Below, in pieces: positions 1,935 through 40,354 of a stretch of 64,000 nucleotides of DNA (the stretch's first letter is position 1; each line of letters opens with the position of its first letter). Where the stretch lies: the NCBI GenBank assembly GCA_947646585.1, contig CANSHD010000001.1:313210-377209 (forward strand). The letters run 5' to 3'. The stretch comes from an uncultured Alphaproteobacteria bacterium (GTDB lineage: Bacteria; Pseudomonadota; Alphaproteobacteria; Rs-D84). The notes under the pieces are model-generated. The model was not told where the DNA came from and made no database searches. It worked only from the letters and a program-made list of their open reading frames with translations. A program made the translations under genes and the position numbers.

Positions 1935-2612
1935 TTAGCGCGCCGGCGCAATGCGGATTTCAATCCTGCGGTTTGTTAAACGGCCGATGTCGTCCTGGGC
2001 GGCGATGGGGCGCGCCGCGCCGCGGCCGACGATGAACATGCGTGCCGTCTTTACATTTTTTCGGGCCAGAAACACCGCCGTGCGCATCGCCATGTCGCCG
2101 GACAGGGCGGCCGCCGCGTTCGCGTCGCGCATCGCATCGGTATATCCCGCGATTTCCATAAACGTTGCGTCGTATTTGTTCAAAATCTTGGCGATTGTGT
2201 TCAGTGTGTCCGCGCCGTCCGGCGATATCTCTGCCACGTCCAGTTCCATTATCGCGTCGCGTACCAGTATCACGACGACGTCCGTTCCCGCGCGCTGGAC
2301 CGATATGCCGGGCTTGCGCAGGGCGTCGTACAATGCAAATTCCAGATTTGCCATGTACCCGACCGCGGCGATATTGTCGTTTGTGGTTTTGTCGCCGTAT
2401 GTCGCGGCGGCGGGCGTCTCAACCGCGTCCCCCACCAGGCGCCCGCCCGCGCCCAAATACACCGGGCGTTTTGCGACGCGCGCGGCGTCCGTCATGTCGG
2501 ACATGCTGGCGCCGTGCAGATATGCGCGCCATTCGGCCCGCGGCGGGCTGGTATATTGCGCGCATGATGTTGTGATAACGGTTAAAAGCAGTATCGCCGC
2601 CAGTTTTTTCAT
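1935..2612 (-). CDS. OmpA-family peptidoglycan-associated lipoprotein.
   Basis: Signal peptide with lipobox 'LLLTVITTSC'. C-terminal OmpA_C-like motifs 'GYTDAMRDANAAAALSGDMAMRTAVFLARKNV…NRRIEIRI'. Confidence 0.65.
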   Translation of the reverse strand: MKKLAAILLLTVITTSCAQYTSPPRAEWRAYLHGASMSDMTDAARVAKRPVYLGAGGRLVGDAVETPAAATYGDKTTNDNIAAVGYMANLEFALYDALRKPGISVQRAGTDVVVILVRDAIMELDVAEISPDGADTLNTIAKILNKYDATFMEIAGYTDAMRDANAAAALSGDMAMRTAVFLARKNVKTARMFIVGRGAARPIAAQDDIGRLTNRRIEIRIAPAR

Positions 2613-3071
2613 TTATTCCACTATAAAGGAAATCTCGTTTGTACGCGAAGAGAAACAGCTGTCCGCGGTCGTGTCCGCCGGCATGCCGTTGACGCGAATC
2701 TCCGCGGCCCATCCCGGGGCAGTGGTGATGAAATAATCGCATTCGCCCGCCGACAGCTGCGTTAAATTTATAGAGAAAGTATTGCCGTCCGCGCCGGCCG
2801 TGACCGACCACGGCCCGCCCAGCGGCGCGCGGTCCGATTTCAGTGCGCCCGCCTTTATCAAATAATCGACCGATACGCCGGAATAATCGCCCCGCATCCC
2901 CAGCAGCAGGCGCGTATCGCGTGCCAGCGCCTCCATGTTCGCCGATGCGACCGCACGCATCTGGTTGCCGCGTATAACGTTGTACAGGGACACTGCGCTG
3001 ACCGTCATTATTGCGCCGATTGCCATTATGCCGATGATTTCAATCAAAGAGCGTCCGGATTCTTCCCGCAT
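2613..3071 (-). CDS. Type IV pilin or pseudopilin-like protein, 152 aa from the internal ATG.
   Basis: Six-residue basic leader 'MREESG', then 'RSLIEIIGIMAIGAIM' with G at -1 and E at +5, followed by a hydrophobic helix. Two C-terminal Cys (…ECDYF…DSCF…) resemble a pilin D-region disulfide. The start sits 24 nt after the dnaX stop, with no gap to the downstream lipoprotein gene. Confidence 0.55.
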   Translation of the reverse strand: MREESGRSLIEIIGIMAIGAIMTVSAVSLYNVIRGNQMRAVASANMEALARDTRLLLGMRGDYSGVSVDYLIKAGALKSDRAPLGGPWSVTAGADGNTFSINLTQLSAGECDYFITTAPGWAAEIRVNGMPADTTADSCFSSRTNEISFIVE

Positions 3072-3094
3072 GGTGTTTGTCCCCTTGTGTTTGG

Positions 3095-4654
3095 TTATTT
3101 GGAAACGCCGACTATCTGTGCGTCCGCAAACAGGTTCATCGCACTGGCGACCATCGGGTCCGCCTCCAGCTCTTCCTGTTTCTGTTCCGTTATCGTGTGG
3201 GCGTGCTGGGATTGCGCCGTGCGTTCCAGACGCCATTCATGCCCCGTTTTATCCGCCAGCCATGCCGCCAGGCGCGGTGCGAAATCCGCCTCGCCCTTGC
3301 GGTCGAAATATTTGATGCATCCGTCCGCAAAATCACAGACCTCAATATTGCTGCTGTAATATGAATAGAGCAGTATTTCGCGGGCATCCTGCAGCGCCGT
3401 CCCCAGCTGTGCGGCCGATGCAATCTGCAGCATCTTTTTTTGCGGCGCCGCATTTTGCGCGGGTGCCGTTGTGCCAGCACCGGCGGCCGGCTTTTGTGTC
3501 GGGGCTGTGTTTTGCGCCTGTTTCATCAAATCTGAAATCGGCGGAATTTCCGCGATATGCATGCATCGCACGATTAGCATGTCAAAGCACTGTTTTTGAT
3601 TCCCGGCCGCCTGCATTTCGGATACGGATGCGACCAGAACCTGCCAAATTCGCGACAGGGTGTTTAAACTGACCTTTGATATAATCTGCTGCATCTGTTC
3701 GCGCATGTCCGCGGTATATGGCGAGTTCACGCATTCCCCCGCGTGCAGCGCCGGATGCATGCGTGTGGCCCAGTGCGTCCATTCCATCATGTCGCCAAGC
3801 AGCATCGCCAAATCCGCGCCGTTTGTGTAAATCTGGTCCGCGCGTTCCAATGCGGCGGCCACGTCGCCTGACAGCAGTGTTTTCATAAAATCGACAACCA
3901 CGCCGCGGTCCGCGCGCTTTAACATGGCCAGAACCGCCGCCTCGTCAACATTGCCGCCTGTTTGTGCAATCGCCTGGTCCAGCAGAGACAACCCGTCGCG
4001 GACCGAGCCGTCGGCCGCGCGCGCCAGCAGTTCGTTTGCGGCGTCGTCCAGTGTCACGCCCTCCTGCCCCGCAATCCATGCAAAATGTTTTTTTAATGTT
4101 TCGACCGGCACGCGAACCAAATCAAAACGCTGGCAGCGGGATAGAATGGTAACGGGCACCTTGCGTATTTCGGTGGTCGCCAGAATAAAGATTACGTGTG
4201 CCGGCGGCTCCTCCAGTGTTTTCAGCAGCGCGTTAAACGCCGACGTCGACAGCATGTGGACTTCGTCGATTATATAAACCTTATACCGGCCGTTCGTCGG
4301 GCGGTATTGCGCGGCGTCCAGAATGTCGCGCATGTTGTCGACACCCGTGTGTGACGCGGCGTCGATTTCCAGAACGTCTATATGCTGGCCCGCGGCGATT
4401 GCGCGACAGTTTTCGCACACCCCGCACGGTGTCGCGGTGGCCTTGTCCCCCGACAGGCAGTTCAGCGCCTTTGCAAGAATACGCGCGGTACTGGTCTTGC
4501 CCGTTCCGCGAATGCCGGTAAATATGTATGCATGCGCAATGCGGCCCGTGTTAATTGCGGTGGTAAGTGTTTTTACCAGCACGTCCTGGCCGATTAAAGA
4601 TTGAAAATCCTGGCTGCGGTATTTGCGTGCCAAAACGGTATAGTTCGTATCCAT
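3095..4654 (-). CDS. dnaX: DNA polymerase III subunit gamma/tau.
   Basis: AAA+ clamp-loader motifs 'GIRGTGKTSTARILAKALNC' (Walker A), 'YIIDEVHMLS' (Walker B) and 'SRCQRFDL' (sensor). The start is placed at the MDTNYTV methionine. Confidence 0.9.
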   Translation of the reverse strand: MDTNYTVLARKYRSQDFQSLIGQDVLVKTLTTAINTGRIAHAYIFTGIRGTGKTSTARILAKALNCLSGDKATATPCGVCENCRAIAAGQHIDVLEIDAASHTGVDNMRDILDAAQYRPTNGRYKVYIIDEVHMLSTSAFNALLKTLEEPPAHVIFILATTEIRKVPVTILSRCQRFDLVRVPVETLKKHFAWIAGQEGVTLDDAANELLARAADGSVRDGLSLLDQAIAQTGGNVDEAAVLAMLKRADRGVVVDFMKTLLSGDVAAALERADQIYTNGADLAMLLGDMMEWTHWATRMHPALHAGECVNSPYTADMREQMQQIISKVSLNTLSRIWQVLVASVSEMQAAGNQKQCFDMLIVRCMHIAEIPPISDLMKQAQNTAPTQKPAAGAGTTAPAQNAAPQKKMLQIASAAQLGTALQDAREILLYSYYSSNIEVCDFADGCIKYFDRKGEADFAPRLAAWLADKTGHEWRLERTAQSQHAHTITEQKQEELEADPMVASAMNLFADAQIVGVSK

Positions 4655-4729
4655 GCAATTCTTCCTTTGGGAAAAAGCATAGCACGCACACGCCAAATTT
4701 CAACAATTAAAAAGAGTGAAGCGTCGTCG

Positions 4730-5026
4730 TTATTTCAGATTTGAAATAAAATCCGGGAAAGAGTTTTCCTCGTCCGCGTCTTCTTCGGTCTCTTCCGTTG
4801 CCGGGGCGGCCGCCGCCTTTTCGGACGGTGTGCGTGTGGAATCAATTTTGCCCTGTTCCGCGGCGACGATGCGGCCGTAGTGTTCGGCGGTTTGCATCAG
4901 ACGCTCGCGCTCGATTTCATCGGATGTCTGGCGCGCCTGGTCCATGTACTGTTTGCGCTTTTGACGCCATTTGTGACAACGCTGAATCATCAGTCCGACC
5001 GAGGATTGGTTTTTTTTGTTTTGCAT
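4730..5026 (-). CDS. Small basic DUF4167-like protein.
   Basis: Basic N-terminus (KWRQKRKQ) and a 'QTAEHYGRI' motif resembling DUF4167 AEHYxR. Acidic tail. Confidence 0.35.
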   Translation of the reverse strand: MQNKKNQSSVGLMIQRCHKWRQKRKQYMDQARQTSDEIERERLMQTAEHYGRIVAAEQGKIDSTRTPSEKAAAAPATEETEEDADEENSFPDFISNLK

Positions 5027-5193
5027 CTAATTTTTCTTTATTATCAGGAAATACTTTTTCTCTTCTGTGTCGCCTACGATTTTTATTTTTGCTTTCCGCA
5101 GCGACTGTCCGTGGCATAGATTAAAGCATCTGAAAACTGATTGCAATATTTTTTTTCTATTGCTATCCTGACTTTATGTAGGAGGGACGGATT

Positions 5194-6546
5194 TTGTCCA
5201 GGCAAAGCGGAAATTTTTTATTACAGGCCCTGCTGGCATTGTCTTTAATTTTTGCGTTCATTCCATTCTGGGCAGAGCGTCTGGCGGCGCGCGAAACAGA
5301 CGCCCAGATGTATTCCGCCACGCGCCAGGTTGATGTCGCGGTGACCGCCGCGCGTATATTCATCCGTGAAAATGCGTCCAATATCGGATATGACCGGACG
5401 GTTGTCGCCGGCGCCGATTTCGGTGATTTGCTGGAACCGTACGGCCTGCCACTGGGGTTTGTGCCGCGCACGGCCCTGGGCCAGGATATCAGCCTGGTTA
5501 TCAACAAGACCCCGCAGGAGGTGACGGCTTATCTTGAGCTGTCGGGCGGAAATTTGTCCGCGGTGCGTACCGCGGAATTGGCGCGCCGCATCGGGTTCTA
5601 TGCGACGCCGGTCGGTTCGGTTATAAATGTCGGCATCGCCCTGGACGAGGGGTTTTCCGACGTCGTCCGCCGCAATGAAAATAATCTGGAGGCGGGCGCC
5701 TTTTTAACCGACCTGGACATGGGCGGGTTTGTGTTTGACAATGCCGGCGCCGCGATTGCGCGAACCGGCACGTTTAATACGGCGATGACGAACACTTTGT
5801 CCGTCGCGGGAACGGAAAACGGCCGCAAGGTTCGCAACAAGATAGAGGATTTGTCCGCCACGCGCGCGGTGTTCCAAAGCAAAAGCGGCGAGGCAGCATT
5901 ATCGCTGGTTCGCGGAACATTGACCGCGGACAGTGTCGATGCGCGCACCGTCGCGCGGTTTGGCGATGCGGGGAATTTCACCGCGGACACCGCGTCCGTG
6001 TATGAGTTTTCCATGACGGCGGGCCGCACGGGATTTTCGGGCCCCGGCGCCTGGAACGTCCGCGGCAACGTCGTGTCCGACAGAATAAATTTCAGTGTGG
6101 AACGCCTGGACGTGTCGTCGTATATAAATGTCGCCCGCGGCCAGGACGTTTATATAAATGATGATTTGGAATACAGCGCGCGCAGTGGGATAGAAACCGA
6201 TACCTTAATCGCATCCAATGTCACGATGCGCGACCAGACGTCCGACGCGTTGTCGTCGGGCGGGACCGGCGCGGTTGTTGTTGACGTCCGCCCGGCGGGA
6301 ACGTCTTATCTGCCGGACGCGTATGTTAACAATGTCGACAACGCCGCGTTTGAAATTATTGCGGCCCCCGATGGCGCGGACGGCAAGACCGTCGATTGCA
6401 AGGCGGTCGTGTCACAGCTTGACGCTTCTTATAATCAGCGCAGCCTGTCGCAGTACATAATATGCCAGTATGTATACTGGCAGCGGCTGGAGATGCGAAT
6501 GAACATAATACAGTGTCTAAAGGAAGGTCGCGGTGACTGCATGTAA
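5194..6546 (+). CDS. Large prepilin-like membrane protein, first of three tandem paralogs.
   Basis: TTG start 7 nt after SD ggaggg. Leader 'MSRQSG' followed by 'NFLLQALLALSLIFAFIPFW' with G at -1 and Q at +5. About 420 aa extracytoplasmic domain. Shares '…RT…I…IG…VG' and 'L.MGG' blocks with the next two ORFs. Confidence 0.6.
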   Translation: MSRQSGNFLLQALLALSLIFAFIPFWAERLAARETDAQMYSATRQVDVAVTAARIFIRENASNIGYDRTVVAGADFGDLLEPYGLPLGFVPRTALGQDISLVINKTPQEVTAYLELSGGNLSAVRTAELARRIGFYATPVGSVINVGIALDEGFSDVVRRNENNLEAGAFLTDLDMGGFVFDNAGAAIARTGTFNTAMTNTLSVAGTENGRKVRNKIEDLSATRAVFQSKSGEAALSLVRGTLTADSVDARTVARFGDAGNFTADTASVYEFSMTAGRTGFSGPGAWNVRGNVVSDRINFSVERLDVSSYINVARGQDVYINDDLEYSARSGIETDTLIASNVTMRDQTSDALSSGGTGAVVVDVRPAGTSYLPDAYVNNVDNAAFEIIAAPDGADGKTVDCKAVVSQLDASYNQRSLSQYIICQYVYWQRLEMRMNIIQCLKEGRGDCM

Positions 6547-7750
6547 CAAAGGCGTTTTTGCAGAAGGGTCGCGTGGCGCCGGTTTGACGGAGGCCTTGCT
6601 GGCGATGGCGATTGTCGGCATCGCGGCGCCGTTTGTGTACCACCAGGTTGCGGACACCACGCGCAGTGCGGCCGACATTCGGACCGCATCGCGTATTATC
6701 GACATGCGCGGGCCGGCATTGAATTATGTCCGCATGCATGGCGACGCGTGGCCGGACACGGCCCAGATACGTTTGACGCCCGAAGATTTGGCGTTGATTG
6801 CGGACGGTGCCACCGCCGGTTTTATAGACAAGTATGCCGTGTCCGGCGCCGCTGTTACCGACATATATCTGGCATTTGATTTAGGAACGGACCGGGTGCG
6901 CACGGCGTCCATTGCGCGCAATATTGGAATAGATGCTGCGGTTGTCGGTGACGACGGAATTGCATACGGCGCATCGTGGGCCGTAACCGCGCCGGATTTT
7001 ATGCCGGGTGATTTGATATACAGAATATCGCGCGATGTCACGGGCGAGGATACGGCAAAATATTTGCATCGCGGCACGTCGGGTGAAGACGGCCTGAATG
7101 TCATGCAGCGTGATTTGAACATGGGCGGCCACAATGTTTATGACATCGGCGGCGTTGTCGCAAAATCCGCCAAGATAAACGGTGCGACCGCCATGTTCGT
7201 CGAAGCGCAAAGCGTTGCGGCCGATGCGGCGTATTTTTCGTCGGGCGCCAATATCGACGGCGGCGTGGCGTCATTGGGCGCGTTGCGCGTGACCGGCGAC
7301 GTGACGGGCTTTCGCAATATTGTGGCGACGACGCTCAACGGCGCCGGATACACCACGTCGGGTCGTGTGATTACGGACCGCGCAACGGTCACAAATTCGG
7401 TCAATGTCGCGCGCGATTTGACCCTGAAATCGGACGCCACTCGCACAATCAGCGGTTTTGACGGCATCACGGCCAGTACTGTTGCGACGCCGTTCATATC
7501 CGCAGACGAAATAATTTTTTATGATAATTTTGGATTAACTTTGTCGGGGGAGCTGTTAATGTCAACGACGGCGCCGCTGAAAATCGGTTCTTGGACATTC
7601 CCGTCGACAACGCCGCCAAAGTTTTCAAAATTGACATTGTCGCGCGCCGAATATCCGGCCGCGGTTCGAAAAACGGAATTTGCGCCGATAATGCGGCGCG
7701 GATGGATGGACGGGCTTATTGAAAATGAAACTGCGCAGAACAATTTTTAA
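6533..7750 (+). CDS. Large prepilin-like membrane protein, second paralog.
   Basis: GTG start after SD aaggaagg. The start overlaps the upstream stop. N-terminus '…SRG|AGLTEALLAMAIVGIAAPFVY' with E at +5 and an 'AIVGIAA' core resembling pseudopilin consensus. Confidence 0.6.
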   Translation: MTACNKGVFAEGSRGAGLTEALLAMAIVGIAAPFVYHQVADTTRSAADIRTASRIIDMRGPALNYVRMHGDAWPDTAQIRLTPEDLALIADGATAGFIDKYAVSGAAVTDIYLAFDLGTDRVRTASIARNIGIDAAVVGDDGIAYGASWAVTAPDFMPGDLIYRISRDVTGEDTAKYLHRGTSGEDGLNVMQRDLNMGGHNVYDIGGVVAKSAKINGATAMFVEAQSVAADAAYFSSGANIDGGVASLGALRVTGDVTGFRNIVATTLNGAGYTTSGRVITDRATVTNSVNVARDLTLKSDATRTISGFDGITASTVATPFISADEIIFYDNFGLTLSGELLMSTTAPLKIGSWTFPSTTPPKFSKLTLSRAEYPAAVRKTEFAPIMRRGWMDGLIENETAQNNF

Positions 7751-9035
7751 CGGGCCGTCCGAATGTGGTGGCATGCTGGTTGAATTGATGCTCAGCGTTG
7801 CGCTGGCCATGATTGTGATACCGTTTATTTTCAGATATCATCAGCGCGCCGTCCGGCGTGCCGAAAATATCGCCGTTTCCCGCCAGATGGAGGGGGTGCA
7901 AAGCGCACTGGAACGTTATATTATGGCGCATCGCGACGAATTGCTGGCGCCGGTTGGTAAAAATATAACACGTGTTGCACTGGCGGATTTGGTGCCGTTC
8001 GGCGTGTCCGAGGATTTGGTCGCCACCGCCGGCGACAAATATCAGCTGCGCGTGTTAAAGGCCGCCGATTTCAACAGCCGGGCGACCCTGCAGGGCGTGG
8101 TCGTATTGAATGACGGCGATATCAGTCCGCTGCGCACGCGCGAGATAGTGAACATTGCCGGCGACCGTGTCGGGTTTCTGGATTCGGGGCGCGCATACGG
8201 TGCGTTCGGCACGTGGAACAGTGCGGCGCTGGACTTGGGACTGGGCGACGGGGGCGGCATTGTGGAAACGACGCCCGCCCTGCGCGACAACGCAAAATAT
8301 TTGTGGCGCGTGCCGTCCGCGGATACGGCCGATGCGACGATGCTGTCGGCGCTGTCGCTGGGGGGGCACGATATCGCGTCGGCGTCTTTCTTTAACAGCC
8401 GCAGCGCCCGCTTTGACGAATTGCTGTCCGTGGGTGAAATCGCCGCCGGCAACATTATTTTTCAAAACAGAACATCGATTGATAAAAAGTTGAGTGCCGT
8501 TTCGTCAACCGTGTCGGGTGCACTGTCGTCGGACTCTAAAAACATGGACGTTGCGGGTAAATTTTCATTGGCCGATTTGGGAAAGTTTTCAGGCTTTACC
8601 GTGTCGGACCTGTACGTGACGAACATGACGCTGTCCGGAATCAGCGTCAGTGACACCGGCGATGTCGCGCTGCTTAAGATAAACCAGGCGCTGGACATGA
8701 CGTCGGGGCGCATCGACGCAATGTTTGTGACGGTGGGGTTTGCGGGATCCATAACGCCGCGCCTTGTCGTGCGCAATCGTATCGAAGATTCGATAAACCC
8801 GTCCTATTATTGGGACGCGTCGCACGGCGTGGCGAATTTTTCAGACGTATCCTTTGCGGAATTGTCGCGTATGGCGCCGCTGGCGCTGGCACGTGAAGGG
8901 CGTGGCACCACGGCCGCGCAAATATTCGGCGCGGTTGCGGCAAACAAGAATGCGACGGCGTCCGATTACATGAATGCGATAACGAAAATCCAGGAAGCGG
9001 TTCGTAAAAAATATCGCGCCTTGAATTTGCAATGA
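7719..9035 (+). CDS. Large prepilin-like membrane protein, third paralog.
   Basis: N-terminus 'MKMKLRRTIFNGPSECG|GMLVELMLSVALAMIVIPFIF' with E at +5 and a Pro-Phe pair ending the helix, as in paralogs 1 and 2. The start overlaps the upstream stop. Confidence 0.55.
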   Translation: MKMKLRRTIFNGPSECGGMLVELMLSVALAMIVIPFIFRYHQRAVRRAENIAVSRQMEGVQSALERYIMAHRDELLAPVGKNITRVALADLVPFGVSEDLVATAGDKYQLRVLKAADFNSRATLQGVVVLNDGDISPLRTREIVNIAGDRVGFLDSGRAYGAFGTWNSAALDLGLGDGGGIVETTPALRDNAKYLWRVPSADTADATMLSALSLGGHDIASASFFNSRSARFDELLSVGEIAAGNIIFQNRTSIDKKLSAVSSTVSGALSSDSKNMDVAGKFSLADLGKFSGFTVSDLYVTNMTLSGISVSDTGDVALLKINQALDMTSGRIDAMFVTVGFAGSITPRLVVRNRIEDSINPSYYWDASHGVANFSDVSFAELSRMAPLALAREGRGTTAAQIFGAVAANKNATASDYMNAITKIQEAVRKKYRALNLQ

Positions 9036-9056
9036 TATGTGGTATAAGGTAAAAAT

Positions 9057-9569
9057 ATGAAAACGGTTTGTGATTTTTGCAAGACGGAATACAACACCCC
9101 CGCCGGTGTGCGCGGCCGCGTGCGCTGTGCGGTGTGCGGGTACGAATGGATTATATCCCCGGCCGCGCGGCGCGGCGCATGGTTGACTTTTATTGCGGCG
9201 GCGACGGCCGCATTGGCCGCGATAGTGTTCTCGATTGCGGTAATCACCCGGCACCAGGCCCAGACCGCGGCCGCATCCCGGCCACTGGTTGCGACGGTTA
9301 CGGATATTCATTCCGTTATCGATGCGGCGGGTGTGTCCCATTTTGTGGTATCGGGCCGCGTTACGAACCAGTCGGCCGAGATATACGGCGTTCCCGATTT
9401 GATAATCGTATCGCGTGATGAAAACGGAAACGAGATTTCGCGTCAAAAGTTCATGCCGTCGGCGACATTGCTGGATTCGGGGGCCTCGGTTGAATTTTCG
9501 CATACCCTGTCGGCCGCGTCGGACGGCGTGAAAAAGATAACCCTGGAATTAAAAGACCAAACGGATTGA
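9057..9569 (+). CDS. Zinc-ribbon (MJ0042-type) membrane protein with a DUF3426-like C-terminal domain.
   Basis: 'CDFCKTEYNTPAGVRGRVRCAVCGYEW' is a C-x2-C…C-x2-C ribbon. One TM segment 'WLTFIAAATAALAAIVFSIAV' is followed by a beta-rich periplasmic domain. Confidence 0.5.
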   Translation: MKTVCDFCKTEYNTPAGVRGRVRCAVCGYEWIISPAARRGAWLTFIAAATAALAAIVFSIAVITRHQAQTAAASRPLVATVTDIHSVIDAAGVSHFVVSGRVTNQSAEIYGVPDLIIVSRDENGNEISRQKFMPSATLLDSGASVEFSHTLSAASDGVKKITLELKDQTD

Positions 9570-10042
9570 AAATGAAAAAGATAATATCCTCGTTTGTTTT
9601 GTGTGCCGCAATATGCGCCGGTGCGCACGGGGCGACGGCAACCGCGCCCGCACCGCGCATCAGCATTTTTTCCACCAGCACCGACTGGGAGGCTGTAACG
9701 GGCCTGTCGCTGCATGAATATCGCGGCAAGTTTAAATATTCCGACAACAACAAGCTGGTTGGTCGTGGTCTTGTTTTATATTATCTGGACGGTTTCCCAT
9801 GCTATGGCTTGGGCGAAGGGGTTCGCGTATGGCTGGGGGCGCGCGGTGCCCACGACGGCGAATTGCGCATTGCATGCGTCCATGCCCCGACCGAGATACG
9901 GTTTGCCTGGCGCAATGCGACCCGCGACGCGGACCAGGCCGTGACCGAGGGGATTTTAACATGTCCCGTGACCGGCGACCGTGAATTTACAATTGATTTG
10001 TCCCGCTGTACGCGCGGACCTGATTGGGATAGTTACAAATAA
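9566..10042 (+). CDS. Small secreted protein with a signal peptide and six Cys.
   Basis: Signal peptide 'MKMKKIISSFVLCAAICAGAHG'. ATGA overlap with the upstream gene. No recognisable family. Confidence 0.45.
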   Translation: MKMKKIISSFVLCAAICAGAHGATATAPAPRISIFSTSTDWEAVTGLSLHEYRGKFKYSDNNKLVGRGLVLYYLDGFPCYGLGEGVRVWLGARGAHDGELRIACVHAPTEIRFAWRNATRDADQAVTEGILTCPVTGDREFTIDLSRCTRGPDWDSYK

Positions 10043-11007
10043 TGACACAGTTGCGAGATTTTGTTGTTGATGAATCCGGCGCCGGCGTACGCCTGGACAA
10101 GTTTTTGGCAACCCAAATGCCGGAGTTTTCACGCGCCCAGATTCAGGGTTTTCCGGCATGTGTCGGCGGCCGCCCGGCCAAGGGTGCGACGCGCCTGCGC
10201 GCCGGCGACGCGGTGTCGGTTGAAATTGCGGACAATGACCGCCCCGGCGACGTGGCGGCCGACAATATATCGCGCGACTTTGATTTGGACATTTTGTTCG
10301 AAGACGACGACATCATCGTTGTGAACAAGCCGCGCGGGGTTGTAATGTACCCGTCGGCGGGAAACAAGACCGGAACACTGGTTCAGAATATTTTGGCGCA
10401 CACGCATTTGTCGGCGCTGGGCGGGACGACGCGTCCCGGCGTTGTTCACCGCCTGGACAAGGATACCAGCGGCGTCATGGTCTTTGCAAAATCAGACGCG
10501 GCGTTCCGCGGATTGGTTCGGATATTTTCGGCGCACGATTTGACACGCAAATATGTCGCGTTCGTATGGGGAATTCCGAACTGGACCGGTGCGGACATAA
10601 CGGGAAATATCGCGCGCTCGTCCCGCAACCGCCAAAAAATGAGCATGGTAAAGACCGGCGGCCGCCCGGCCCAGACGATTGTGAACGTGATGGATGTCTG
10701 GACGCGCGTCGGCGTTTCGGCGTTTCGCTGTACCTTGATGACGGGCCGCACGCACCAGATACGCGTCCACCTGTCGGCGCATGGATTCCCGGTCTTGTGC
10801 GACCCGGTCTATGGCCGCGGCTCTGCAAGACTCGGCAGTGTTCGAAACCCCGAATTGCTGGACTTTATAAAAACGCACAACGGCCAGATGCTGCATGCCG
10901 AGGTGTTGGAGTTCACGCACCCCGTGACCGGCGCCGCCATGCATTTCCGTGCGCCACTCCCGGGCGACATGAGTGAGCTGCGCTGCATACTTGACGATAC
11001 TGAATAA
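10042..11007 (+). CDS. rluD: RluA-family 23S rRNA pseudouridine synthase, RluD-like.
   Basis: Catalytic motif 'HRLDKDTSGVMVFAKSD'. N-terminal S4-like region. The length matches RluD. Confidence 0.7.
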   Translation: MTQLRDFVVDESGAGVRLDKFLATQMPEFSRAQIQGFPACVGGRPAKGATRLRAGDAVSVEIADNDRPGDVAADNISRDFDLDILFEDDDIIVVNKPRGVVMYPSAGNKTGTLVQNILAHTHLSALGGTTRPGVVHRLDKDTSGVMVFAKSDAAFRGLVRIFSAHDLTRKYVAFVWGIPNWTGADITGNIARSSRNRQKMSMVKTGGRPAQTIVNVMDVWTRVGVSAFRCTLMTGRTHQIRVHLSAHGFPVLCDPVYGRGSARLGSVRNPELLDFIKTHNGQMLHAEVLEFTHPVTGAAMHFRAPLPGDMSELRCILDDTE

Positions 11008-11088
11008 AACCGCCGCTCCGTATGATTATTTTATTTGTCTGAAATTCTTTTTATGATATAATAAAATATAAAAGATGGAGCGAGCAGA

Positions 11089-14000
11089 ATGAGTCTCTTT
11101 AAAAAATCAATTGGTTTTCTGGCTGTTTTGACGGCATTTCCGGCGTCATATGCATTGACGGCACGGCCCAGTGTCATCGGTACCGCGTCGGCGCGTATGC
11201 CCACAATGACGGCGTTGATTACAAACACCGGCACGTCCGGCACGGGGTCGACCACAACATCAACATTGCTGGCAAACGCCGAATGCATTGATGCATACAC
11301 GTCGTGTATGAAGGGTGGCGACGCCTGTGGTTCTGATTTTGAAGAGTGCACGAACAAGGTTCTGTTCCACGGCAAAATGCCTCAGTGTCTGTCCACTTTG
11401 GCTCAGTGCAGCACGGCCGGCGTGACCAGCCTGTTCGGTACCGGCACGGTAACGGCGTTGTCCACCGTCGCGACCAAGAACAGCTATGGCGAGGTGACGG
11501 ATTACACATACCCCACCGACGGCAGTGTTCTGGGCCAGTTGATTACCGGTGCGGCGATATCGAACAAATATGACACGTCCACCTGTGTAAAGCGCTATAC
11601 GTCATGCTTAAAGAAAGACAGTGTCTGCGGCAATGATTTTGAACTTTGCACAACCGACAAAGAATTTAGAAAACAGCGCGTATTCTGCGATTCCACTTTG
11701 GCCCGCTGCCAGTCTGAGGGCTTGATTGAACTGTTCGGCAGCGCCAACACATCGACCACGCCCGCCGCAGCCAGCCGCATTGGCGAAATGATTGCCGAAG
11801 GCGCGGCATTGGCGGCTGTAAACGCGGTATCCACATGCTACAAGGTTGTGGACCAGTGTATCTTGAACGCATGTGCGACGAACCCGTACAAGTGCTTTGA
11901 AAACAGCACGAACGCCACCGTAAGTTTGGTTGAGGCCATCAACACCGGCGTCGCCACGGCGGAAAACACGGCCGCATCCACAATTGCGAACGTTACATCC
12001 GGCATGGATATCGTAACGAAATCCAACGTTGCGTCTTATATCAAGAACAGCTGTCTGGACACAATCGGCTCCAACAAATACTGCTATGCCACGTTTATCG
12101 GCAACGGCCAGATGCCGACCGCGTCCCAGCTGAAAGACGAAGACAACCAGGAAGAAATCTATGACGAGGCGTATGCCGCCCGCATGAGCAGCGCCATGAA
12201 GGCCAAGATTTCCGATTTGGTCGATCAGTTTGACACCAAGGCAAAGCAAAAGTGCACCGAAACAATCAAGACATGCGTAATGCGCGTCTGCGGTTCCGGA
12301 TCCGGGGCGGCCTGCTATTCCCAGGTGTTCGGCAATCGTGACAAGTCCATCAACAACAGCGTGACATATCCGGAACTGCAGACCGGCTGTGCGGCGGTTG
12401 TCAACACGGATGCATATTGTAAGTATGCCGCGGCAAATCCGAATACAACCGGCGGTTATACATATTCTTATATAAACAACGATGCGTTCAGCATTCTGTT
12501 CCCGGAATATGAATCCGGCGGCAACGACCCGATTGGCGTTATCTCCGCGTTGAACGCGACGCTGGCCAACAGCTACAGCGACGCGGCCATCGCCACGATG
12601 AAGCGCCAGTGCCAGGCGGTCGCGACATCCTGCGTCAAATCCATGTGCGGCACGGATTACCAGAACTGCTATCGCAACCGTACGGACGTTTATTCTTCTT
12701 TGACCAACACCGGCGATTCGTCGTTTGACAAATCAATGAACAAGGTTGGCGGCGTTCTGGATTACACAATCGTTTTGGGCCTATGCCTGGATACGGTTAA
12801 ATCCGCCTCTGTCTGCGAAGAACATTTGGCGATTGAACGCAACAAGCTGAAAATTGCAAACAATTCCAAGGCCTCTGTCTGGGGCGGTGCGAACAGTTCG
12901 CGCGAAGGTTGGATTGACGCCGGCTCTGCCACGGCCGTGACAGCAACCAGCGAACAGGTTGCGGCAACCGACGAAAACGGTAACGCTTTGTGCACAAACA
13001 AAAACGGCACACAGCAGGGCGTCTGCTACAGCGCCGACTGCGAGGGTGGCTGTACCGAACCCGTATATATCTCATATACGACATATGTTGAATCACAGGC
13101 GGCGTCGACCCTGTTCAAGGATTTGATTTACGACCTTGAAAAAGAGGCTCAGGCGAAATATAACGCGAAATTAACGAAGCAGCAGAATATGTGCATGTCT
13201 TCGAACCAGGGCGGCGTTATGGGCAACCGCGACATGGGCAGCACGTTCCTGTGGGTAAAGCTGAAGTCCAGCACGGTGCCAAAGGCATACCCGGTATCGG
13301 GCCTGAAGCCGTCGCAGTTCGCGGCCAGCAACGACCTGTACGGTTCATTCTGCCGTGTCCGCATAACACTGCAGTCCGATGACAAAAAGATTCAGGACGT
13401 TATCGCCAAGGGTACCGATTGGGCCACGGCATATTTCGCGGCGGGTGATACGTTTACCTGCGGCTCCTGGATTCCGGAAAAAGCGTTGACCCAGCTGGCC
13501 GATGCGGTTGCAAAAGACGCCCGCGCGGACGAGGCCCAGGGCAACGGCAGAACCAGGGCTTGGATGGCTGTTCTGGGAACAGTCGCCGGCGGTGCATTGG
13601 TTGGTGTCGCAACCAACAAGATGCAGGACGGCGCATTCCTGGGCGGACTTTTGGGAACCACCGGCAGCAATACCGGCGACACACAGACAACTGTTGATAA
13701 CTGTGTAACGGCGGCGACATATTATACCGGCTCCAAAGACGCCAATGACCGTTCCTCGTATTTGGCGCGTGCGGTAAAGAATGCCCGTACATTGGGTGTT
13801 GACTCTACAATAATAAGCCAGTTGAACGAAGCGCATCTGGCATATTCGGATATTGCCGGCACAACCGCACCTGCCGTGACAGAAGCGGACCGCCAAGTTC
13901 AAAAGAGCGCAACGTTTATTTCACAAGGTAGCCGTGTCCCCGATGAGACCATGTCAAATACTATTAGACAAAATTTGGGGCTAGAAACATATACAAGCGT

Positions 14001-14589
14001 TTCTTTAACAGGTGTATCTTGTGAATTCAATTGCACTGCATTCACAAACGGTAGATATACAGGTCAACGTTTTGATATTTGTGGTGACAAAACAGGGCCG
14101 GGTTGGTATCAGATAACATCATTGGCCGACTGTCAGAACACCAGTGACCAAGATATACGCAATCCGCAATATACATACACTGTATATTATGAAGATGCAG
14201 ATGCGAAAAGATACAACGACACTTTGGCGACAAGTCGTAGCGAAGCGGCGAGCTATCCGTCGAAAATTGAGGAAAAGCGCCAGGCAGCTAATACTGCGAT
14301 GAACAGATTGTCCACGGCATGCCAGGAAAAAGCGCCGAACGATGATGCGAAAAAGAAAGAAGCGCAAAAGCGTTCCATCACAACGGCCGTTAGTGCGGGT
14401 GTTGGTGCGATTGCGGGCGGTGTGCTGGCGTATCAGGCGACCAAGAGCATCCAGAATTCCAAACTGGACAGCGTTGAAAAAGCCGCCTATGACGAATGGA
14501 TGAACGAAGTCGGTAATCATATCCGTTGCTTTGTCGGTGGCGACGAGGTAGGTATGTACGGCGATATCATCAGCACGTCGATGGAGTAA
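11089..14589 (+). CDS. Large secreted cysteine-rich repeat protein, 1166 aa, with a possible C-terminal membrane anchor.
   Basis: Signal peptide 'MSLFKKSIGFLAVLTAFPASYA'. Two roughly 52 aa internal repeats (CIDAYTSCMKGGDACGSDFEEC… and CVKRYTSCLKKDSVCGNDFELC…). Many C-x5-6-C-x4-5-C modules. Hydrophobic segment 'ITTAVSAGVGAIAGGVLAY' near the C-terminus. Confidence 0.7.
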   Translation: MSLFKKSIGFLAVLTAFPASYALTARPSVIGTASARMPTMTALITNTGTSGTGSTTTSTLLANAECIDAYTSCMKGGDACGSDFEECTNKVLFHGKMPQCLSTLAQCSTAGVTSLFGTGTVTALSTVATKNSYGEVTDYTYPTDGSVLGQLITGAAISNKYDTSTCVKRYTSCLKKDSVCGNDFELCTTDKEFRKQRVFCDSTLARCQSEGLIELFGSANTSTTPAAASRIGEMIAEGAALAAVNAVSTCYKVVDQCILNACATNPYKCFENSTNATVSLVEAINTGVATAENTAASTIANVTSGMDIVTKSNVASYIKNSCLDTIGSNKYCYATFIGNGQMPTASQLKDEDNQEEIYDEAYAARMSSAMKAKISDLVDQFDTKAKQKCTETIKTCVMRVCGSGSGAACYSQVFGNRDKSINNSVTYPELQTGCAAVVNTDAYCKYAAANPNTTGGYTYSYINNDAFSILFPEYESGGNDPIGVISALNATLANSYSDAAIATMKRQCQAVATSCVKSMCGTDYQNCYRNRTDVYSSLTNTGDSSFDKSMNKVGGVLDYTIVLGLCLDTVKSASVCEEHLAIERNKLKIANNSKASVWGGANSSREGWIDAGSATAVTATSEQVAATDENGNALCTNKNGTQQGVCYSADCEGGCTEPVYISYTTYVESQAASTLFKDLIYDLEKEAQAKYNAKLTKQQNMCMSSNQGGVMGNRDMGSTFLWVKLKSSTVPKAYPVSGLKPSQFAASNDLYGSFCRVRITLQSDDKKIQDVIAKGTDWATAYFAAGDTFTCGSWIPEKALTQLADAVAKDARADEAQGNGRTRAWMAVLGTVAGGALVGVATNKMQDGAFLGGLLGTTGSNTGDTQTTVDNCVTAATYYTGSKDANDRSSYLARAVKNARTLGVDSTIISQLNEAHLAYSDIAGTTAPAVTEADRQVQKSATFISQGSRVPDETMSNTIRQNLGLETYTSVSLTGVSCEFNCTAFTNGRYTGQRFDICGDKTGPGWYQITSLADCQNTSDQDIRNPQYTYTVYYEDADAKRYNDTLATSRSEAASYPSKIEEKRQAANTAMNRLSTACQEKAPNDDAKKKEAQKRSITTAVSAGVGAIAGGVLAYQATKSIQNSKLDSVEKAAYDEWMNEVGNHIRCFVGGDEVGMYGDIISTSME

Positions 14590-27346: not shown

Positions 27347-29260
27347 ATGAAATCTTTTACACACATTTTGTTGGTGGCGCTGATGCTGGGGCCGTGTGGC
27401 GCCGCGTTTGCCGCCGCGCCTTTGTCTGGTACGTTGGGCAGTAATTTAACCGCCTATAATCCGAACGGCGGGGTAATGAACAATAATGAGTGGAATTCCA
27501 TGATGAACAGCCGCAGTGGGTCCGGCACGGCCGCCACGGCGGATTTTGGAAATTGTAATTCTGTAATTCTGCGGTGCGCGTCGCCAAAGTGCGCGAACGG
27601 CGGATGCACATCGATTGAGGTTGCGACACCGATTGTTGCAGGCTGCGTTGCGTCAAACGCCGCATGTAAACAGTATGGCGATGAATTGACCCAGTATATC
27701 GCGGCCCAGCTGGTCGCAAATTCAACGGCGAAAACAAACGCACAGATGGCGGCGGCGCAAAATGCCGCGGCCGAACAAAGCGCCATGCAAATGCAACAGA
27801 TGCAGGCCCAGATGCAGCAGATGCAGGCGGATATGGCCGCACAAAATGCACAGCAGATAGCGCAGCTGCAGTCGGCACTGGAAGAACAGCAGCGCGCGAC
27901 CGAGGCTGCCCGGGCCGAAGCGGCCGCCGCCGCCACCGCGGCGTCAAACGCCGCGCAGTCGTCCGCCACAATGGGTGCAACGGTTTCCGCGGACGCATCT
28001 GCAGCCACCACCACGGCATCGTCCGGTGCAACACCAACAACGGTTATGGAGGGGTTGTCCGAGGCGCAGCGTATCGCCGCCAATGCCGGCGTATCCGCCG
28101 ATATATTGGCCCGCGAACAGGTCGCCGGCCAGATTATGACATCGCTGGAACGGGCCCAGGTCAATTTGAACAAGGCCAAGGCGGCAATGCAGAACGCATT
28201 TTCCTATGCCGGGTGCACAACGTCGGGCGACAATTGTGTCGGGCCAAAGCGCGTGTCTGTTTTCCGCCAAAAGGCGATGGAGTTTTTCGAACCGTATGAC
28301 GCGGTTCTGGACGAATTGTATGACGCACTGGTTACGGCCCAGTCCGTCGGTGTCGATATTACCGATATATATATGATGCTCAACGGCAGCTGTAATGTCT
28401 GGGGCGAGTATCTGTGTAATGGCGGTACGGTGTTGGATGATTCAGGCGCCAGAAATACCGAAAAAGTTTGTAAAACGACGACCGATGCAAATGGCAAGGA
28501 AACCACAACATGTGAATCGGTCACGAAAAGTTCCACGCAGTCCGGCGGGAACATGGTTTGGGCCAAATATGATGAAAACAACTGCCCGATTAACGGCGGA
28601 CAATCGAAAAAGTATGGTTGGTCGCGCGGTTTAAACAGGGAATGTTATCGAGACACAACAATCCCGCCCGAAGATTCAACGGCCTGTACCCTTAACCGTA
28701 CATTGACCGATATGGAAGACGTTCAGCGTAATTTCCTGTTTGCCGAAGCGGGCGATATAGACGAACACGTTCGTATCGGGTGCGCGTCGTCTGCGCTGGA
28801 AAACAGCAAGTTCTTCCGCAACCGCAAAAAGGGCTCCAGCATTGATATTGAGACACTGGAACGCATCGTTTCCCAGGATGCGCCGGCAATGTTCGGTTCC
28901 AACCGATTTGGCGCCTCAAGCGACCCAGCGATTGATGGTCCGAAATACTGTGCGGTCAACGCCACCAGCTATATGGATTTGCAAAAGGCGGCGGCGTTGA
29001 AAAAACTGCCCGCGCGCGTCTGTGTCAGCGACAAGTCGCTGGCCGCGAACCTGTCGGCGAACGGATTGCTGTCCATGTCCGATATTGATGCGATGATAAA
29101 GGCCGGCGGAACCAATACCGGCTCCGGCGTGACGGGTAATAAGGATCCGCAATATTCGGACAAGGAAACTTGCAATAAATGGCAGGGCGAATGGAAAGAT
29201 AGTGCATGCAAATGCGACGGCAAAAAACAATGGTGGAACGGTGTTTGTGTTTTCAGATAA
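27347..29260 (+). CDS. Secreted cysteine-rich protein with a Gln/Met/Ala-rich low-complexity coiled region.
   Basis: Signal peptide 'MKSFTHILLVALMLGPCGAAFA'. 'CNSVILRCASPKCANGGC' module. 'QMQQMQAQMQQMQADMAAQNAQQIAQLQ' tract. Many Cys in the C-terminal half. Confidence 0.65.
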   Translation: MKSFTHILLVALMLGPCGAAFAAAPLSGTLGSNLTAYNPNGGVMNNNEWNSMMNSRSGSGTAATADFGNCNSVILRCASPKCANGGCTSIEVATPIVAGCVASNAACKQYGDELTQYIAAQLVANSTAKTNAQMAAAQNAAAEQSAMQMQQMQAQMQQMQADMAAQNAQQIAQLQSALEEQQRATEAARAEAAAAATAASNAAQSSATMGATVSADASAATTTASSGATPTTVMEGLSEAQRIAANAGVSADILAREQVAGQIMTSLERAQVNLNKAKAAMQNAFSYAGCTTSGDNCVGPKRVSVFRQKAMEFFEPYDAVLDELYDALVTAQSVGVDITDIYMMLNGSCNVWGEYLCNGGTVLDDSGARNTEKVCKTTTDANGKETTTCESVTKSSTQSGGNMVWAKYDENNCPINGGQSKKYGWSRGLNRECYRDTTIPPEDSTACTLNRTLTDMEDVQRNFLFAEAGDIDEHVRIGCASSALENSKFFRNRKKGSSIDIETLERIVSQDAPAMFGSNRFGASSDPAIDGPKYCAVNATSYMDLQKAAALKKLPARVCVSDKSLAANLSANGLLSMSDIDAMIKAGGTNTGSGVTGNKDPQYSDKETCNKWQGEWKDSACKCDGKKQWWNGVCVFR

Positions 29261-30098
29261 ATCAGAAACGGGGATAAGAAAATTACGCATCGCGCGCATT
29301 TTGACGGCGTCGCTGGTCTGTGCCGTGCTGGCCGGCCCGGCGATGGCTGACGACGGCTGCGAGGACGAATCCAACGACCGTATCGCACCGGAACTGGCAT
29401 TGTGCAGTGTGCACGCGTATAATATCGGCATATCCTCAAACCCGGCCGGCGCGGACAAGCAACTGATGAAGGAAATCGTCGCGCTGAAAACCACCGTTAT
29501 CACCCAGCAGATGAACAAACAGTACGAGTATATGGAGGCCATGATTCGCCGCTTTAGAACGCAGTTGGAAAAAGCGGTTTTGACGACCAAGCTTCAGGCG
29601 GCCGGCGCTACGCCGTCATCCACGGACGGTTCTTCCTCGTCCGGCGGGGGGGGCTATGGCGGCTCCGCGGGGGGCAGTGGTGGCGGACGCAGCAACAACG
29701 GCCTTGCCAATGCCGAAGACTGTATGAACTCATATACGAGTTATTCGGATGTGTATCAGTGCCTGTTGCGCAATGTCGCAAAAATATCGTCCGCGGTGAC
29801 GTCGGGCGATTTGGGCGTGGCGCGCCGCCAGCTGGCCGCCGATTTGACAACGTTGGGCAGTTATAACCGCTTGACCATAAGCTGTGGCCAGAATCAACAG
29901 AATTGCAGCGTGAACGTGCCGTGTCAGAACGCATTGTCGGAAAAAGATGCCAACGGTAAAAACACGACTTGCGCAACCGCCAAAAGCAGTGGCGGCCGCC
30001 GTGACGATATAGCCGCGTGTATCGGCCAGATGCGTGCATGTATTGTTGCGAATAACGAGGCTTTGTCGAATAATTCGAACCAGCAGTCGCGCCCGTAA
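29202..30098 (+). CDS. Secreted cysteine-rich protein with a Gly/Ser linker. Start codon uncertain.
   Basis: Signal peptide 'LRIARILTASLVCAVLAGPAMA'. 'SSSGGGGYGGSAGGSGGG' linker. 'CMNSYTSYSDVYQC' module related to the other Cys-rich paralogs. The GTG start overlaps the upstream gene end. Confidence 0.5.
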   Translation: MHANATAKNNGGTVFVFSDKSETGIRKLRIARILTASLVCAVLAGPAMADDGCEDESNDRIAPELALCSVHAYNIGISSNPAGADKQLMKEIVALKTTVITQQMNKQYEYMEAMIRRFRTQLEKAVLTTKLQAAGATPSSTDGSSSSGGGGYGGSAGGSGGGRSNNGLANAEDCMNSYTSYSDVYQCLLRNVAKISSAVTSGDLGVARRQLAADLTTLGSYNRLTISCGQNQQNCSVNVPCQNALSEKDANGKNTTCATAKSSGGRRDDIAACIGQMRACIVANNEALSNNSNQQSRP

Positions 30099-31519: not shown

Positions 31520-31550
31520 AAACAGCCGCCGTATGGCGGTTGTTTTTTAC
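31520..31550. terminator. Bidirectional terminator between the convergent OmpA-like gene and the PLD gene.
   Basis: 'cagccgcc-gtat-ggcggttg' flanked by an A-run and a T-run. Confidence 0.6.
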
Positions 31551-33448: not shown

Positions 33449-33600
33449 GGTGCCTCTCTCCTGTTTTAATAAAAAAAGCCCCGCAAATGCGGGGGAAATA
33501 AAAAAACGGACAGATTTCTCTGTCCGCACATATGAATACTATATCAAAAATCGCCCCAAAAAGCAATATAAAACGCCCCGTTCGGGGCGTTTAGGCATTT

Positions 33601-35235: not shown

Positions 35236-35553
35236 GTGCGGGCTCTCAAGTTGAGATGAAACGAAAAAAGAAATCTCAACCTCTAGGAAATTCGGCGGTT
35301 CGCAGGTAATTCTGAGGGAATCGCAACATTGTGAATAAAAGCAGCTCATCAAAAATTCAAGAAGGGATGTGCAGACAGTTGAATTTGGAAATATCCAAAC
35401 TTTGACTAAGTCAAATGTGCATATCCTAGACAGGTAGTAGGTTTACATATTAAACCTCGTTAAAAACTTGTCTTGCGAATAAATATATGTAAAGACGAAC
35501 TGATATTATGTCAGTGTTGTTTATGCACAGGACTTAAACCACAAGTTTTTTAG

Positions 35554-37054
<1,501 letters not shown>

Positions 37055-37138
37055 ATAGAGAATACCGTTTCCACGAAAACGGTCAAATCCAAAGCGACTG
37101 TCTGAACATCTCTTTTTGAAAATGGGTATAATTCTGCT

Positions 37139-37521: not shown

Positions 37522-40258
<2,737 letters not shown>

Positions 40259-40354
40259 TTTTTATCTTATCGTTTGACTTATGTCAGACGATTGCTTGAA
40301 GAGAACGTTGACATTGATTCTTGAATCATGTATTATGATGTTCGCTGGATTTAT

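Follow-up and report, generated by a model that had tools for sequence, protein, structure and literature searches.

An ordered chromosomal operon for three large, divergent PilV-like putative minor pilins in Rs-D84 Alphaproteobacteria

What are three consecutive genes for large proteins that each begin like a type IV prepilin doing on an alphaproteobacterial chromosome, with no pilus machinery encoded beside them? This question is raised by contig CANSHD010000001.1 of an uncultured Alphaproteobacteria bacterium from the lineage Rs-D84, of which we analysed a stretch of 64 kb (hereafter the window). An original prediction, made from this stretch without database searches, had described three overlapping open reading frames (ORFs) of 450, 405 and 438 aa, and these were found exactly where it had placed them: ORF1 at 5194..6546 (+ strand, start codon TTG), ORF2 at 6533..7750 (+, start codon GTG) and ORF3 at 7719..9035 (+, start codon TTG, with an in-frame ATG at 7725). 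The overlaps measure 14 nt between ORF1 and ORF2 and 32 nt between ORF2 and ORF3, and Shine-Dalgarno-like sequences precede ORF1 (AGGAGG) and ORF2 (AAGGAAGG). By comparing the window with homologous stretches retrieved from other genomes (loci L001 onward), we arrived at a reading of all three as putative PilV-like large minor pilins.

The N-termini of the three proteins have the features of a class III (type IV prepilin) signal. ORF1 begins with MSRQSG|NFLLQALLALSLIFAFIPF (NFLLQ..IPF), where cleavage is predicted after Gly6, and has Gln at position +5 and Pro-Phe at +18/+19. The N-terminus of ORF2, ..GSRG|AGLTEALLAMAIVGIAAPF (AGLTE..APF), comprises a 15-residue leader with predicted cleavage after Gly15, Glu at +5 and Pro at +18, and that of ORF3, ..SECG|GMLVELMLSVALAMIVIPF (GMLVE..IPF), has its predicted cleavage after Gly17, with Glu at +5 and Pro at +18. 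The leaders are short and positively charged, with Arg, Ser or Gln before Gly-1, and position +5 lies within a hydrophobic helix of ~20 residues. Unusually for prepilins, Asn, Ala or Gly stands at +1. We scanned all six-frame ORFs of at least 80 aa in the window for G-x4-[EQ] combined with at least 10 hydrophobic residues. Matches were restricted to ORF1-3 and a small ORF at 2613-3071 (-), described below as a small pilin, so the motif is not background.

These positions hardly vary among orthologues. Gly-1 is invariant in all three families (ORF1, 78/78; ORF2, 81/81; ORF3, 81/81), as is Pro+18 (78-81 orthologues per family). At +5, the ORF1 orthologues carry Gln (78/78), and Glu is found in 80/81 orthologues of ORF2 and 81/81 of ORF3. 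ORF1, with its invariant Gln, is the only one without Glu at +5; ORF2, ORF3 and the small pilin all carry it. As the overall pairwise identity within the families is only ~55-65%, the invariance of the signal positions points to strong selection on them, and the class III signal features of ORF1-3 are under strict purifying selection. The signal architecture claimed by the original prediction thus holds, with its key residues invariant or nearly so.

Because curated domain models fail on the window proteins, we used profile-profile comparison and transitive searches. Family profiles of 79-81 members were aligned by hhalign to five annotated plasmid PilV proteins. The ORF3 profile aligned residues 26-227 against PilV 22-225 (E = 7e-13, probability 97.8%), the ORF2 profile aligned over 251 columns (E = 3e-9, probability 96.1%), and the ORF1 profile gave E = 2.5e-5 at a probability of 75%. 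The PilV alignment takes in the YLWR/YLYR (YL(W/Y/H)R) block and the M..LNMGG.DI block, the latter being what the original prediction had noted as 'L-x-M-G-G-H'. A few ORF3 orthologues match Shufflon_N directly (3/81 at E ≤ 0.05, best 5.8e-6). Searching 7.3 Gb of plasmid DNA by tblastn (E ≤ 1) returned four matches for ORF3 and seven for ORF2. These are individually weak (E from 0.005 to 0.7), and two of the alignments cover 93% of ORF2. All 11 fall on annotated pilV genes, an agreement that is not due to chance.

Remote relatives connect the two groups further. An exhaustive search of 1.84 billion representatives with the ORF2 profile recovered only 170 proteins, and a G-x4-E...P+18 N-terminus is common to nearly all of the full-length matches. 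Scans of 26 remote members gave matches to Shufflon_N for five (best 6.9e-30) and to N_methyl for four. One of them, P0229, passes the Pfam Shufflon_N model and bears the NCBI name 'shufflon system ... pilus tip adhesin PilV'; it comes third in a tandem array on a chromosome, in which the contig end cuts into the first gene. Another, P0246 (G|FTLLE), is encoded within a canonical pil operon with genes for a secretin, PilO, ATPases, T2SSF, PilS, PilM and PilV, adjoined by a type IV secretion system (T4SS). Used as a query, genuine PilV matches orthologues of ORF3, ORF1 and ORF2; P0246 matches the ORF1 orthologue in L048 at E = 2e-4. These comparisons indicate that the N-terminal ~200-280 residues of ORF1-3 are homologous to the PilV constant region (Shufflon_N, PF04917).

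We conclude from these alignments that ORF1-3 are very divergent PilV homologues. The original prediction had also considered a new protein family, a suggestion that gives way to homologues lying beyond the reach of Pfam and NCBIfam models. Nor is their size unprecedented, as the five plasmid PilV proteins retrieved measure 423-544 aa and ORF1-3 measure 405-450 aa; the label 'giant' holds only against major pilins. The same prepilin-type N-terminus and PilV-like N-domain are found in a group of 830-1,240-aa proteins (P0230, P0235, P0240, P0253 and others; L081:10001-13441). Their strongly conserved C-terminal region (..YQVNPAYTSVMHDIKL(T/S)TRGGARLSDILPDFINKGIYV..PQCPPGY..) has no Pfam match, and they look like a separate giant branch of the PilV-like family.

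ORF1-3 are also related to each other. BLASTP aligned ORF2 with ORF3 (E = 2e-9, 29% over 259 alignment columns) and, weakly, ORF1 with ORF3 (E = 0.003). With profiles of 79-81 orthologues, hhalign connected ORF2 with ORF3 (E = 8e-14), ORF1 with ORF3 (E = 1.5e-7) and ORF1 with ORF2 (E = 1e-5). These profile alignments span roughly the first 180-280 residues and include the shared blocks ..RT..IA..IG.. and L.MGG(H), from which a single paralogous family had been proposed. The BLASTP and profile results agree with that proposal: the three are true paralogues that diverged long ago. Over the last ~130-190 residues, each paralogue has a sequence of its own. Within each family, these C-termini are conserved as strongly as the N-domains, and that of ORF1 has four conserved Cys within its final 50 residues.

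A structure prediction is consistent with a pilin-like N-terminal part. An AlphaFold2 (AF2) model of ORF2 from 26 close orthologues was poor, with a predicted local distance difference test score (pLDDT) of 55, while an alignment of 64 sequences with 50%-identity representatives raised the pLDDT to 74. In the latter model, residues 20-170 reach a pLDDT of ~90 and fold into an N-terminal helix of 39 residues, another helix and a beta-sheet, so that the N-domain (~17-170) has a predicted pilin fold with a long N-terminal helix on a beta-sheet. It is followed by a region rich in beta-strands with weak beta-helix matches, of which residues 200-260 are modelled at a pLDDT of ~80. A Foldseek search of the PDB with the better model gave no significant match, the XcpGHIJK pseudopilus chain being found at a probability of 0.93 and E = 0.16. 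Profile searches of PDB sequences returned marginal matches only, to pilin N-termini, which were the best matches of ORF3.

How widespread is this operon? A scan of a genome collection identified 80 loci, each in a different species-level genome. These genomes bear the labels Candidatus Enterousia, uncultured Alphaproteobacteria or 'Rickettsiales', and among them is a closed chromosome of 958,618 bp. Genomes of Enterousia (order Rs-D84) are smaller than 1 Mb and lack glycolysis and respiration (PMC12306168). A dependence on other cells has been predicted for Rs-D84 bacteria, and Enterousia has been proposed to be an obligate symbiont or parasite (PMC12306168). ORF1, ORF2 and ORF3, followed by two further genes (ORF4 and ORF5) and rluD, occur in the same order in 80/80 loci. 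A collection of 5.8 billion proteins contained 930 relatives of ORF2, all unnamed or called 'hypothetical protein' and from uncultured Alphaproteobacteria, and no Pfam domain was found in any of the 930. GC content and GC skew of the locus are the same as those of its surroundings, so nothing points to a recent acquisition.

The triplet extends beyond these species. In L089 (30% GC), genes of 494, 493 and 484 aa were typed as ORF1, ORF2 and ORF3 in that order, the first of them ambiguously (38 bits for ORF1 against 41 bits for ORF3). L092 has a gene that is cut, followed by an ORF2-type and an ORF3-type gene, the last being P0229, the PilV named by NCBI. In L093, genes of 464, 435 and 469 aa are followed, 5 kb on, by genes for a Zn-ribbon protein, a ~200-aa protein and an rluD-like pseudouridine synthase. 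The presence of ordered ORF1-ORF2-ORF3 triplets in distant low-GC lineages indicates that this arrangement is old. Other lineages have single versions of 900-1,240 aa, one with a PilS-domain gene nearby. In the window as well as in L081, L087, L089, L092 and L093, the neighbours are housekeeping genes and not a pil operon, whereas canonical pil-operon contexts on conjugative elements were seen in L082 and L091.

We also considered whether the three genes might form a shufflon, the DNA inversion system that diversifies plasmid PilV, and rejected this. Inverted repeats in window positions 2000-11100 are weak and at chance level, with no sfx-like repeats among them, Pfam scans found no Rci-type recombinase in the window, and neither the order of the genes nor their C-termini vary across the 80 loci.

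A putative filament subunit is encoded close by. The small ORF at 2613..3071 (-), 2 kb upstream of ORF1 on the other strand, encodes a 152-aa putative small pilin of PilS type (type IVb) with an MREESG leader. Its N-terminus, MREESG|RSLIEIIGIMAIGAIM, has Glu at +5 and a predicted cleavage after Gly6 that would leave 146 mature residues; both Gly-1 and Glu +5 are present in 76/76 orthologues. The window protein matches Pfam PilS (PF08805) at E = 0.007 with 16.8 bits, which is under the 22-bit cut-off. Among its orthologues, 20/38 match PilS at E ≤ 0.01 (best 6e-5) and 10/38 match N_methyl. By hhalign, the small pilin aligned with a Pfam-annotated PilS-domain protein from another lineage at E = 3e-9 and with plasmid PilS at E = 5e-4. 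The small pilin is the likely filament subunit and a candidate for the major one.

Immediately adjoining is a gene for an OmpA-family peptidoglycan-binding lipoprotein (1935..2612, -; OmpA E = 2e-10, YiaD-type OmpA lipoprotein E = 4e-26). Its start abuts the stop codon of the small pilin, and the two are therefore probably co-translated. The small pilin is present in 75/80 loci with the OmpA lipoprotein adjoining, and the whole divergent block (OmpA lipoprotein <- small pilin <- dnaX <- DUF4167) is kept in 75/80. We infer that the lipoprotein may act as the cell-wall anchor of the apparatus. The original prediction had correctly listed ORF1-5 and rluD as parts of the locus, but had missed the small pilin and the OmpA lipoprotein (1935-3071, -), as well as the likeness of ORF4 to ZitP.

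ORF4 (9057..9569, +; 170 aa) starts 21 nt after ORF3. Its sequence comprises a cytoplasmic CxxC-x15-CxxC zinc ribbon, one transmembrane (TM) helix and a periplasmic DUF3426/FxLYD-like domain. The window protein itself remains below threshold (Zn_ribbon_4 E = 0.007, DUF3426 E = 0.03, FxLYD E = 5e-4). At E ≤ 0.01, its orthologues match Zn_ribbon_4 in 39/40 cases (best 7e-7) and DUF3426 in 24/40 (best 2.7e-6), which upholds the earlier description of a zinc-ribbon/DUF3426 protein. This combination of zinc ribbon, TM helix and DUF3426 indicates the architecture of ZitP, a bitopic protein that Caulobacter needs for pilus biogenesis via its periplasmic DUF3426 and that is conserved in alphaproteobacteria (PMC5182063). 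ORF4 and Caulobacter crescentus ZitP are thus both alphaproteobacterial and share an architecture. They differ in length (170 aa versus 311 aa), and ZitP serves a Tad/Cpa pilus and binds PopZ.

ORF5 (9566..10042, +; 158 aa), a secreted Cys-containing protein with a Sec-type signal peptide and no family match, overlaps ORF4 by 4 nt and rluD by 1 nt and is translationally coupled to both. It is present in 80/80 loci, and STDWE and YLDGFPCYG stand out as conserved blocks in its sequence. The co-directional string ends with rluD (10042..11007, +), which encodes an RluA-family 23S rRNA pseudouridine synthase (TIGR00005, E = 5e-70) and is likewise found in 80/80 loci. It is a housekeeping gene and probably not a functional part of the module.

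Some loci have secretion-related genes at their borders. A VirD4/TraG-type T4SS coupling protein (T4SS-DNA_transf E = 1e-53; L056:3122-5368, +) is encoded directly upstream of the skp/OmpA-lipoprotein/small-pilin block in 27/80 Enterousia loci and is absent from the window. In canonical systems, PilV pili accompany conjugative T4SSs. L095:759-7524, from another lineage, is a second case of PilV-like genes near T4SS genes: it holds an ORF1-type homologue, P0239 (Gln +5), and a 412-aa gene, with virB9 (CagX) and virB10 (TrbI) following within 1.8 kb. In 24/80 loci (e.g. L066:3012-4091, +), a gene for a TPR-repeat protein with a membrane anchor lies upstream of skp. TPR proteins are pilotins in some pilus systems. 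Directly after pilV in the conjugative-element pil operon of L091 is a 218-aa gene (L091:11522-12178, +). Its homologues (E to 3e-17) flank ~12 Enterousia loci, mostly on the right and in some cases in two copies (e.g. L026:19736-20245). We rejected this protein as a candidate for the prepilin peptidase PilU, as it is a small beta-barrel outer-membrane protein.

Other genes of the window also deserve mention. Directly after rluD lies a gene for a 1,166-aa Cys-rich secreted protein (11089-14589, +), which has no Pfam or NCBIfam match and keeps its position in 74/80 loci. Further family-less Cys-rich secreted ORFs are located at 27347-29260 and 29202-30098, and a Cys-rich ORF at 42393-42938 has no family match and no clear signal peptide. 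An EcoRI-like adenine-specific DNA methyltransferase (32609-33529, -; E = 1e-70) lies beside a PLD-like nuclease-family gene (31547-32557), and the two possibly form a restriction-modification pair. At 55541-56269 (+) is a gene for a ComF-like protein with a double zinc ribbon and a phosphoribosyltransferase domain. This family is tied to DNA uptake in competent bacteria and is possibly relevant if the pilus imports DNA. A stretch without long ORFs is explained by a complete rRNA operon at 35553-40469 (+), which contains 16S, a tRNA (37139-37212), 23S and 5S.

What, then, might the three proteins do together? The reading that we favour, with a probability of roughly 0.6, is that ORF1-3 are ancient, chromosomally fixed PilV paralogues that form the tip or priming adhesin complex of a PilS-like pilus. 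A prepilin peptidase encoded elsewhere would cleave all four proteins after Gly. Translational coupling within one operon would keep the three large pilins in fixed proportion, and they would assemble into a priming or tip complex, with ORF1 (Gln5) as the first, distal subunit and ORF2 and ORF3 beneath it. The PilS-like pilin would then polymerise under this complex, and the ZitP-like ORF4 may help to localise those parts of the machine that lie in the envelope, or to assemble them. With their three C-terminal domains as hard-wired, constitutive adhesins, three genes would take the place of shufflon DNA inversion, and the adhesins would hold a bacterium that depends metabolically on others to its partner cells or to the surfaces of a host.

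Several published observations underlie this proposal. Charge pairing between Glu5 and the N-terminus drives subunit docking, and a minor pilin without Glu5 is a signature of the first subunit of a filament; TcpB-E5Q still supports assembly (PMC5207764). PilV selects partner cells through its C-terminal domains, which are adhesins (PMC9045228). That Gly-1 and Glu5 do not vary in four families is an indirect argument that assembly machinery exists, and the conserved signals and PilV homology support the original suggestion of a minor-pilin module that serves a machine encoded elsewhere. In a stronger form, the tip would be an obligate heterotrimer with the Gln5 subunit first, a replacement for the shufflon and the organ by which an obligately partner-dependent bacterium attaches to other cells, possibly working with a T4SS, genes of which lie near some of these loci; we regard this version as rather improbable. 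In its most radical form, these genomes may have no canonical type IV pilus machine, with the prepilin features serviced by something else.

A number of results weigh against the favoured reading. In Pfam and NCBIfam scans, ORF1-3 match no curated pilin or PilV model, and they have no match to Pfam N_methyl (PF07963) or TIGR02532 at E ≤ 1; scans of the alignment of ORF2 and its relatives likewise gave nothing, with 0/64 matches to these two models at E ≤ 0.01. The original prediction had put forward prepilin models as a check, and their failure on ORF1-3 themselves stands, but its implication is overturned by the profile-level and orthologue evidence. The window, the 80 Enterousia loci and six chromosomal loci from other lineages (L081, L087-L090 and L092) contain no gene for a prepilin peptidase, assembly ATPase, platform protein or secretin. 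For L093-L095, precomputed Pfam tables, the sole basis there, contain no such machinery either. Searching the window, L001-L081 and L087-L090 by tblastn with the pil and T4SS protein sets of L082 and L091 returned only pilins and the unrelated outer-membrane protein. The Pfam scans and tblastn together confirm the lack of assembly genes in the window that had been noted from its sequence. These searches covered ~7% of one genome and the same region in other species. The published Rs-D84 survey reports type IV pili only for another lineage (PMC12306168), a silence that is weak negative evidence. The C-termini of ORF1-3 are as conserved as their N-domains, unlike adhesins that chase variable receptors. 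The C-terminal remainder of the ORF2 model has a pLDDT of 55-70, so that an adhesin fold is not established, and the order and stoichiometry of the tip complex are pure inference.

A rival reading is that of orphan pilin-like anchors, in reduced genomes from which the assembly machine was lost or in which it was never present. ORF1-3 would then be bitopic inner-membrane proteins with large periplasmic domains and an uncleaved or merely cleaved helix, and, with the OmpA-like lipoprotein and ZitP-like ORF4, they might serve as scaffolds of the envelope. The lack of machinery in any retrieved sequence of these chromosomal lineages, the position of the genes among housekeeping genes and outside pil operons in every chromosomal lineage examined, the Rs-D84 survey without type IV pili for this lineage (PMC12306168) and the conserved rather than variable C-termini are all as expected of such anchors. 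However, it is difficult to see why Gly-1 and a charged or polar +5 residue should be invariant in four families across ~80 species if there were no peptidase and no packing into a filament. The retention of a separate small pilin of PilS type, which has no obvious role outside a filament, also speaks against this view, and the inspected share of the genomes is small. We therefore hold orphan anchors to be unlikely.

A periplasmic pseudopilus or endopilus would retain the filament but shorten it to a type II secretion-like piston, exporting proteins such as the neighbouring Cys-rich secreted ones. Several large proteins of this kind are encoded nearby, one minor pilin lacks Glu5 as in GspK, and the Foldseek match to the XcpGHIJK chain, although not significant, points the same way; type IVb pili such as the toxin-coregulated pilus (TCP) also secrete proteins (PMC5207764). 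Against this, ORF1-3 match no GspH/I/J/K model in Pfam or NCBIfam, and only one remote family member weakly touches GspG/GspH models. It is PilV in particular to which they are homologous, the small pilin resembles PilS and not GspG, and the window contains no gsp genes, all of which leaves a pseudopilus decidedly doubtful. Least probable, and by our estimate very improbable, are Tad/Flp-type pseudopilins (TadE/TadF/TadG-like) serving a Cpa/Tad pilus. The idea draws on the alphaproteobacterial host, for which this is the usual pilus, and on the ZitP architecture of ORF4, as ZitP acts on the Cpa (Tad) pilus (PMC5182063). Yet no TadE (PF07811/PF13400) or Flp match was found in the four proteins or in the orthologues and relatives scanned. 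TadE and Flp N-termini have Pro near +10, and Flp pilins are 50-80 aa long. Here, Pro is at +18 and the small pilin is PilS-like with 146 mature residues. For want of a model match, we rejected the TadE/G and GspK assignments.

If the PilV-type tip complex is accepted, the locus has a bearing on how these bacteria live. Candidatus Enterousia and its Rs-D84 relatives occur widely in the guts of animals and humans and lack most biosynthesis (PMC12306168). No attachment or exchange apparatus has been described for Rs-D84 so far, and this locus is a concrete candidate. Its PilS-type pilin and three PilV-type adhesin-pilins have so far been annotated only as 'hypothetical'. The triplet is kept in all 80 species-level genomes, and new profile models from these alignments would annotate the whole family (170 representatives with the ORF2 profile). 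PilV is known as a plasmid-borne conjugation adhesin diversified by a shufflon; here, several lineages have it as ancient triplets, fixed on the chromosome and in a set order. In addition, a ZitP-like protein is connected here with a set of pilins that is not of Tad type. The significance would be higher if the tip proved to be a heterotrimer, if it served parasitism between cells, or if canonical machinery were truly lacking.

How does this set compare with known systems? Streptococcus sanguinis PilB and PilC combine a pilin module with a grafted, functional C-terminal module that makes the filament adhesive (PMC8179133). They belong to a Gram-positive type IVa-like system and are unrelated in sequence to ORF1-3, in which no vWA or lectin module is recognisable. 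Like ORF1-3, GspK-GspI-GspJ and type IVa minor-pilin sets are co-encoded and coupled, with exactly one member lacking Glu5, the proposed first subunit (PMC5207764). In contrast to them, ORF1-3 are all large and mutually paralogous, and the two groups have no sequence similarity. The member without Glu5 is also encoded first here (ORF1) and has a polar Gln, whereas GspK-type sets encode it last and with a hydrophobic residue.

Further relevant systems are TcpB of the Vibrio cholerae TCP and CofB of CFA/III from enterotoxigenic Escherichia coli (ETEC), tip-initiating type IVb minor pilins that are large and have an extra C-terminal domain (PMC5207764). Profile searches of PDB sequences detected no similarity of ORF1-3 to either protein. 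The TcpB and CofB systems have a single minor pilin, whereas three distinct paralogues are encoded here. CofB and TcpB form homotrimers; with three distinct paralogues, any trimer formed here would be a heterotrimer.

The nearest relatives are the PilV proteins of IncI1/IncI2 plasmids (R64, TP114) and PAPI-1-type conjugative elements, minor pilins and tip adhesins of the type IVb 'thin pilus'. They have in common with ORF1-3 a prepilin N-terminus, a shared N-terminal region that is followed by a variable C-terminal one, and a small pilin partner of PilS type. The leaders of ORF1-3 are short (6-17 residues), and Glu5 or Gln5 is kept, whereas four of the five plasmid PilV proteins lack Glu5. PilV is varied by its shufflon and lies inside a pilL-pilV operon; ORF1-3 are three separate genes with fixed C-termini, free of Rci and sfx-like repeats, that lie on the chromosome among housekeeping genes and not beside ATPases, secretin or peptidase. 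Taken together, the system is a variant of type IVb PilV pili and not a new kind of machine.

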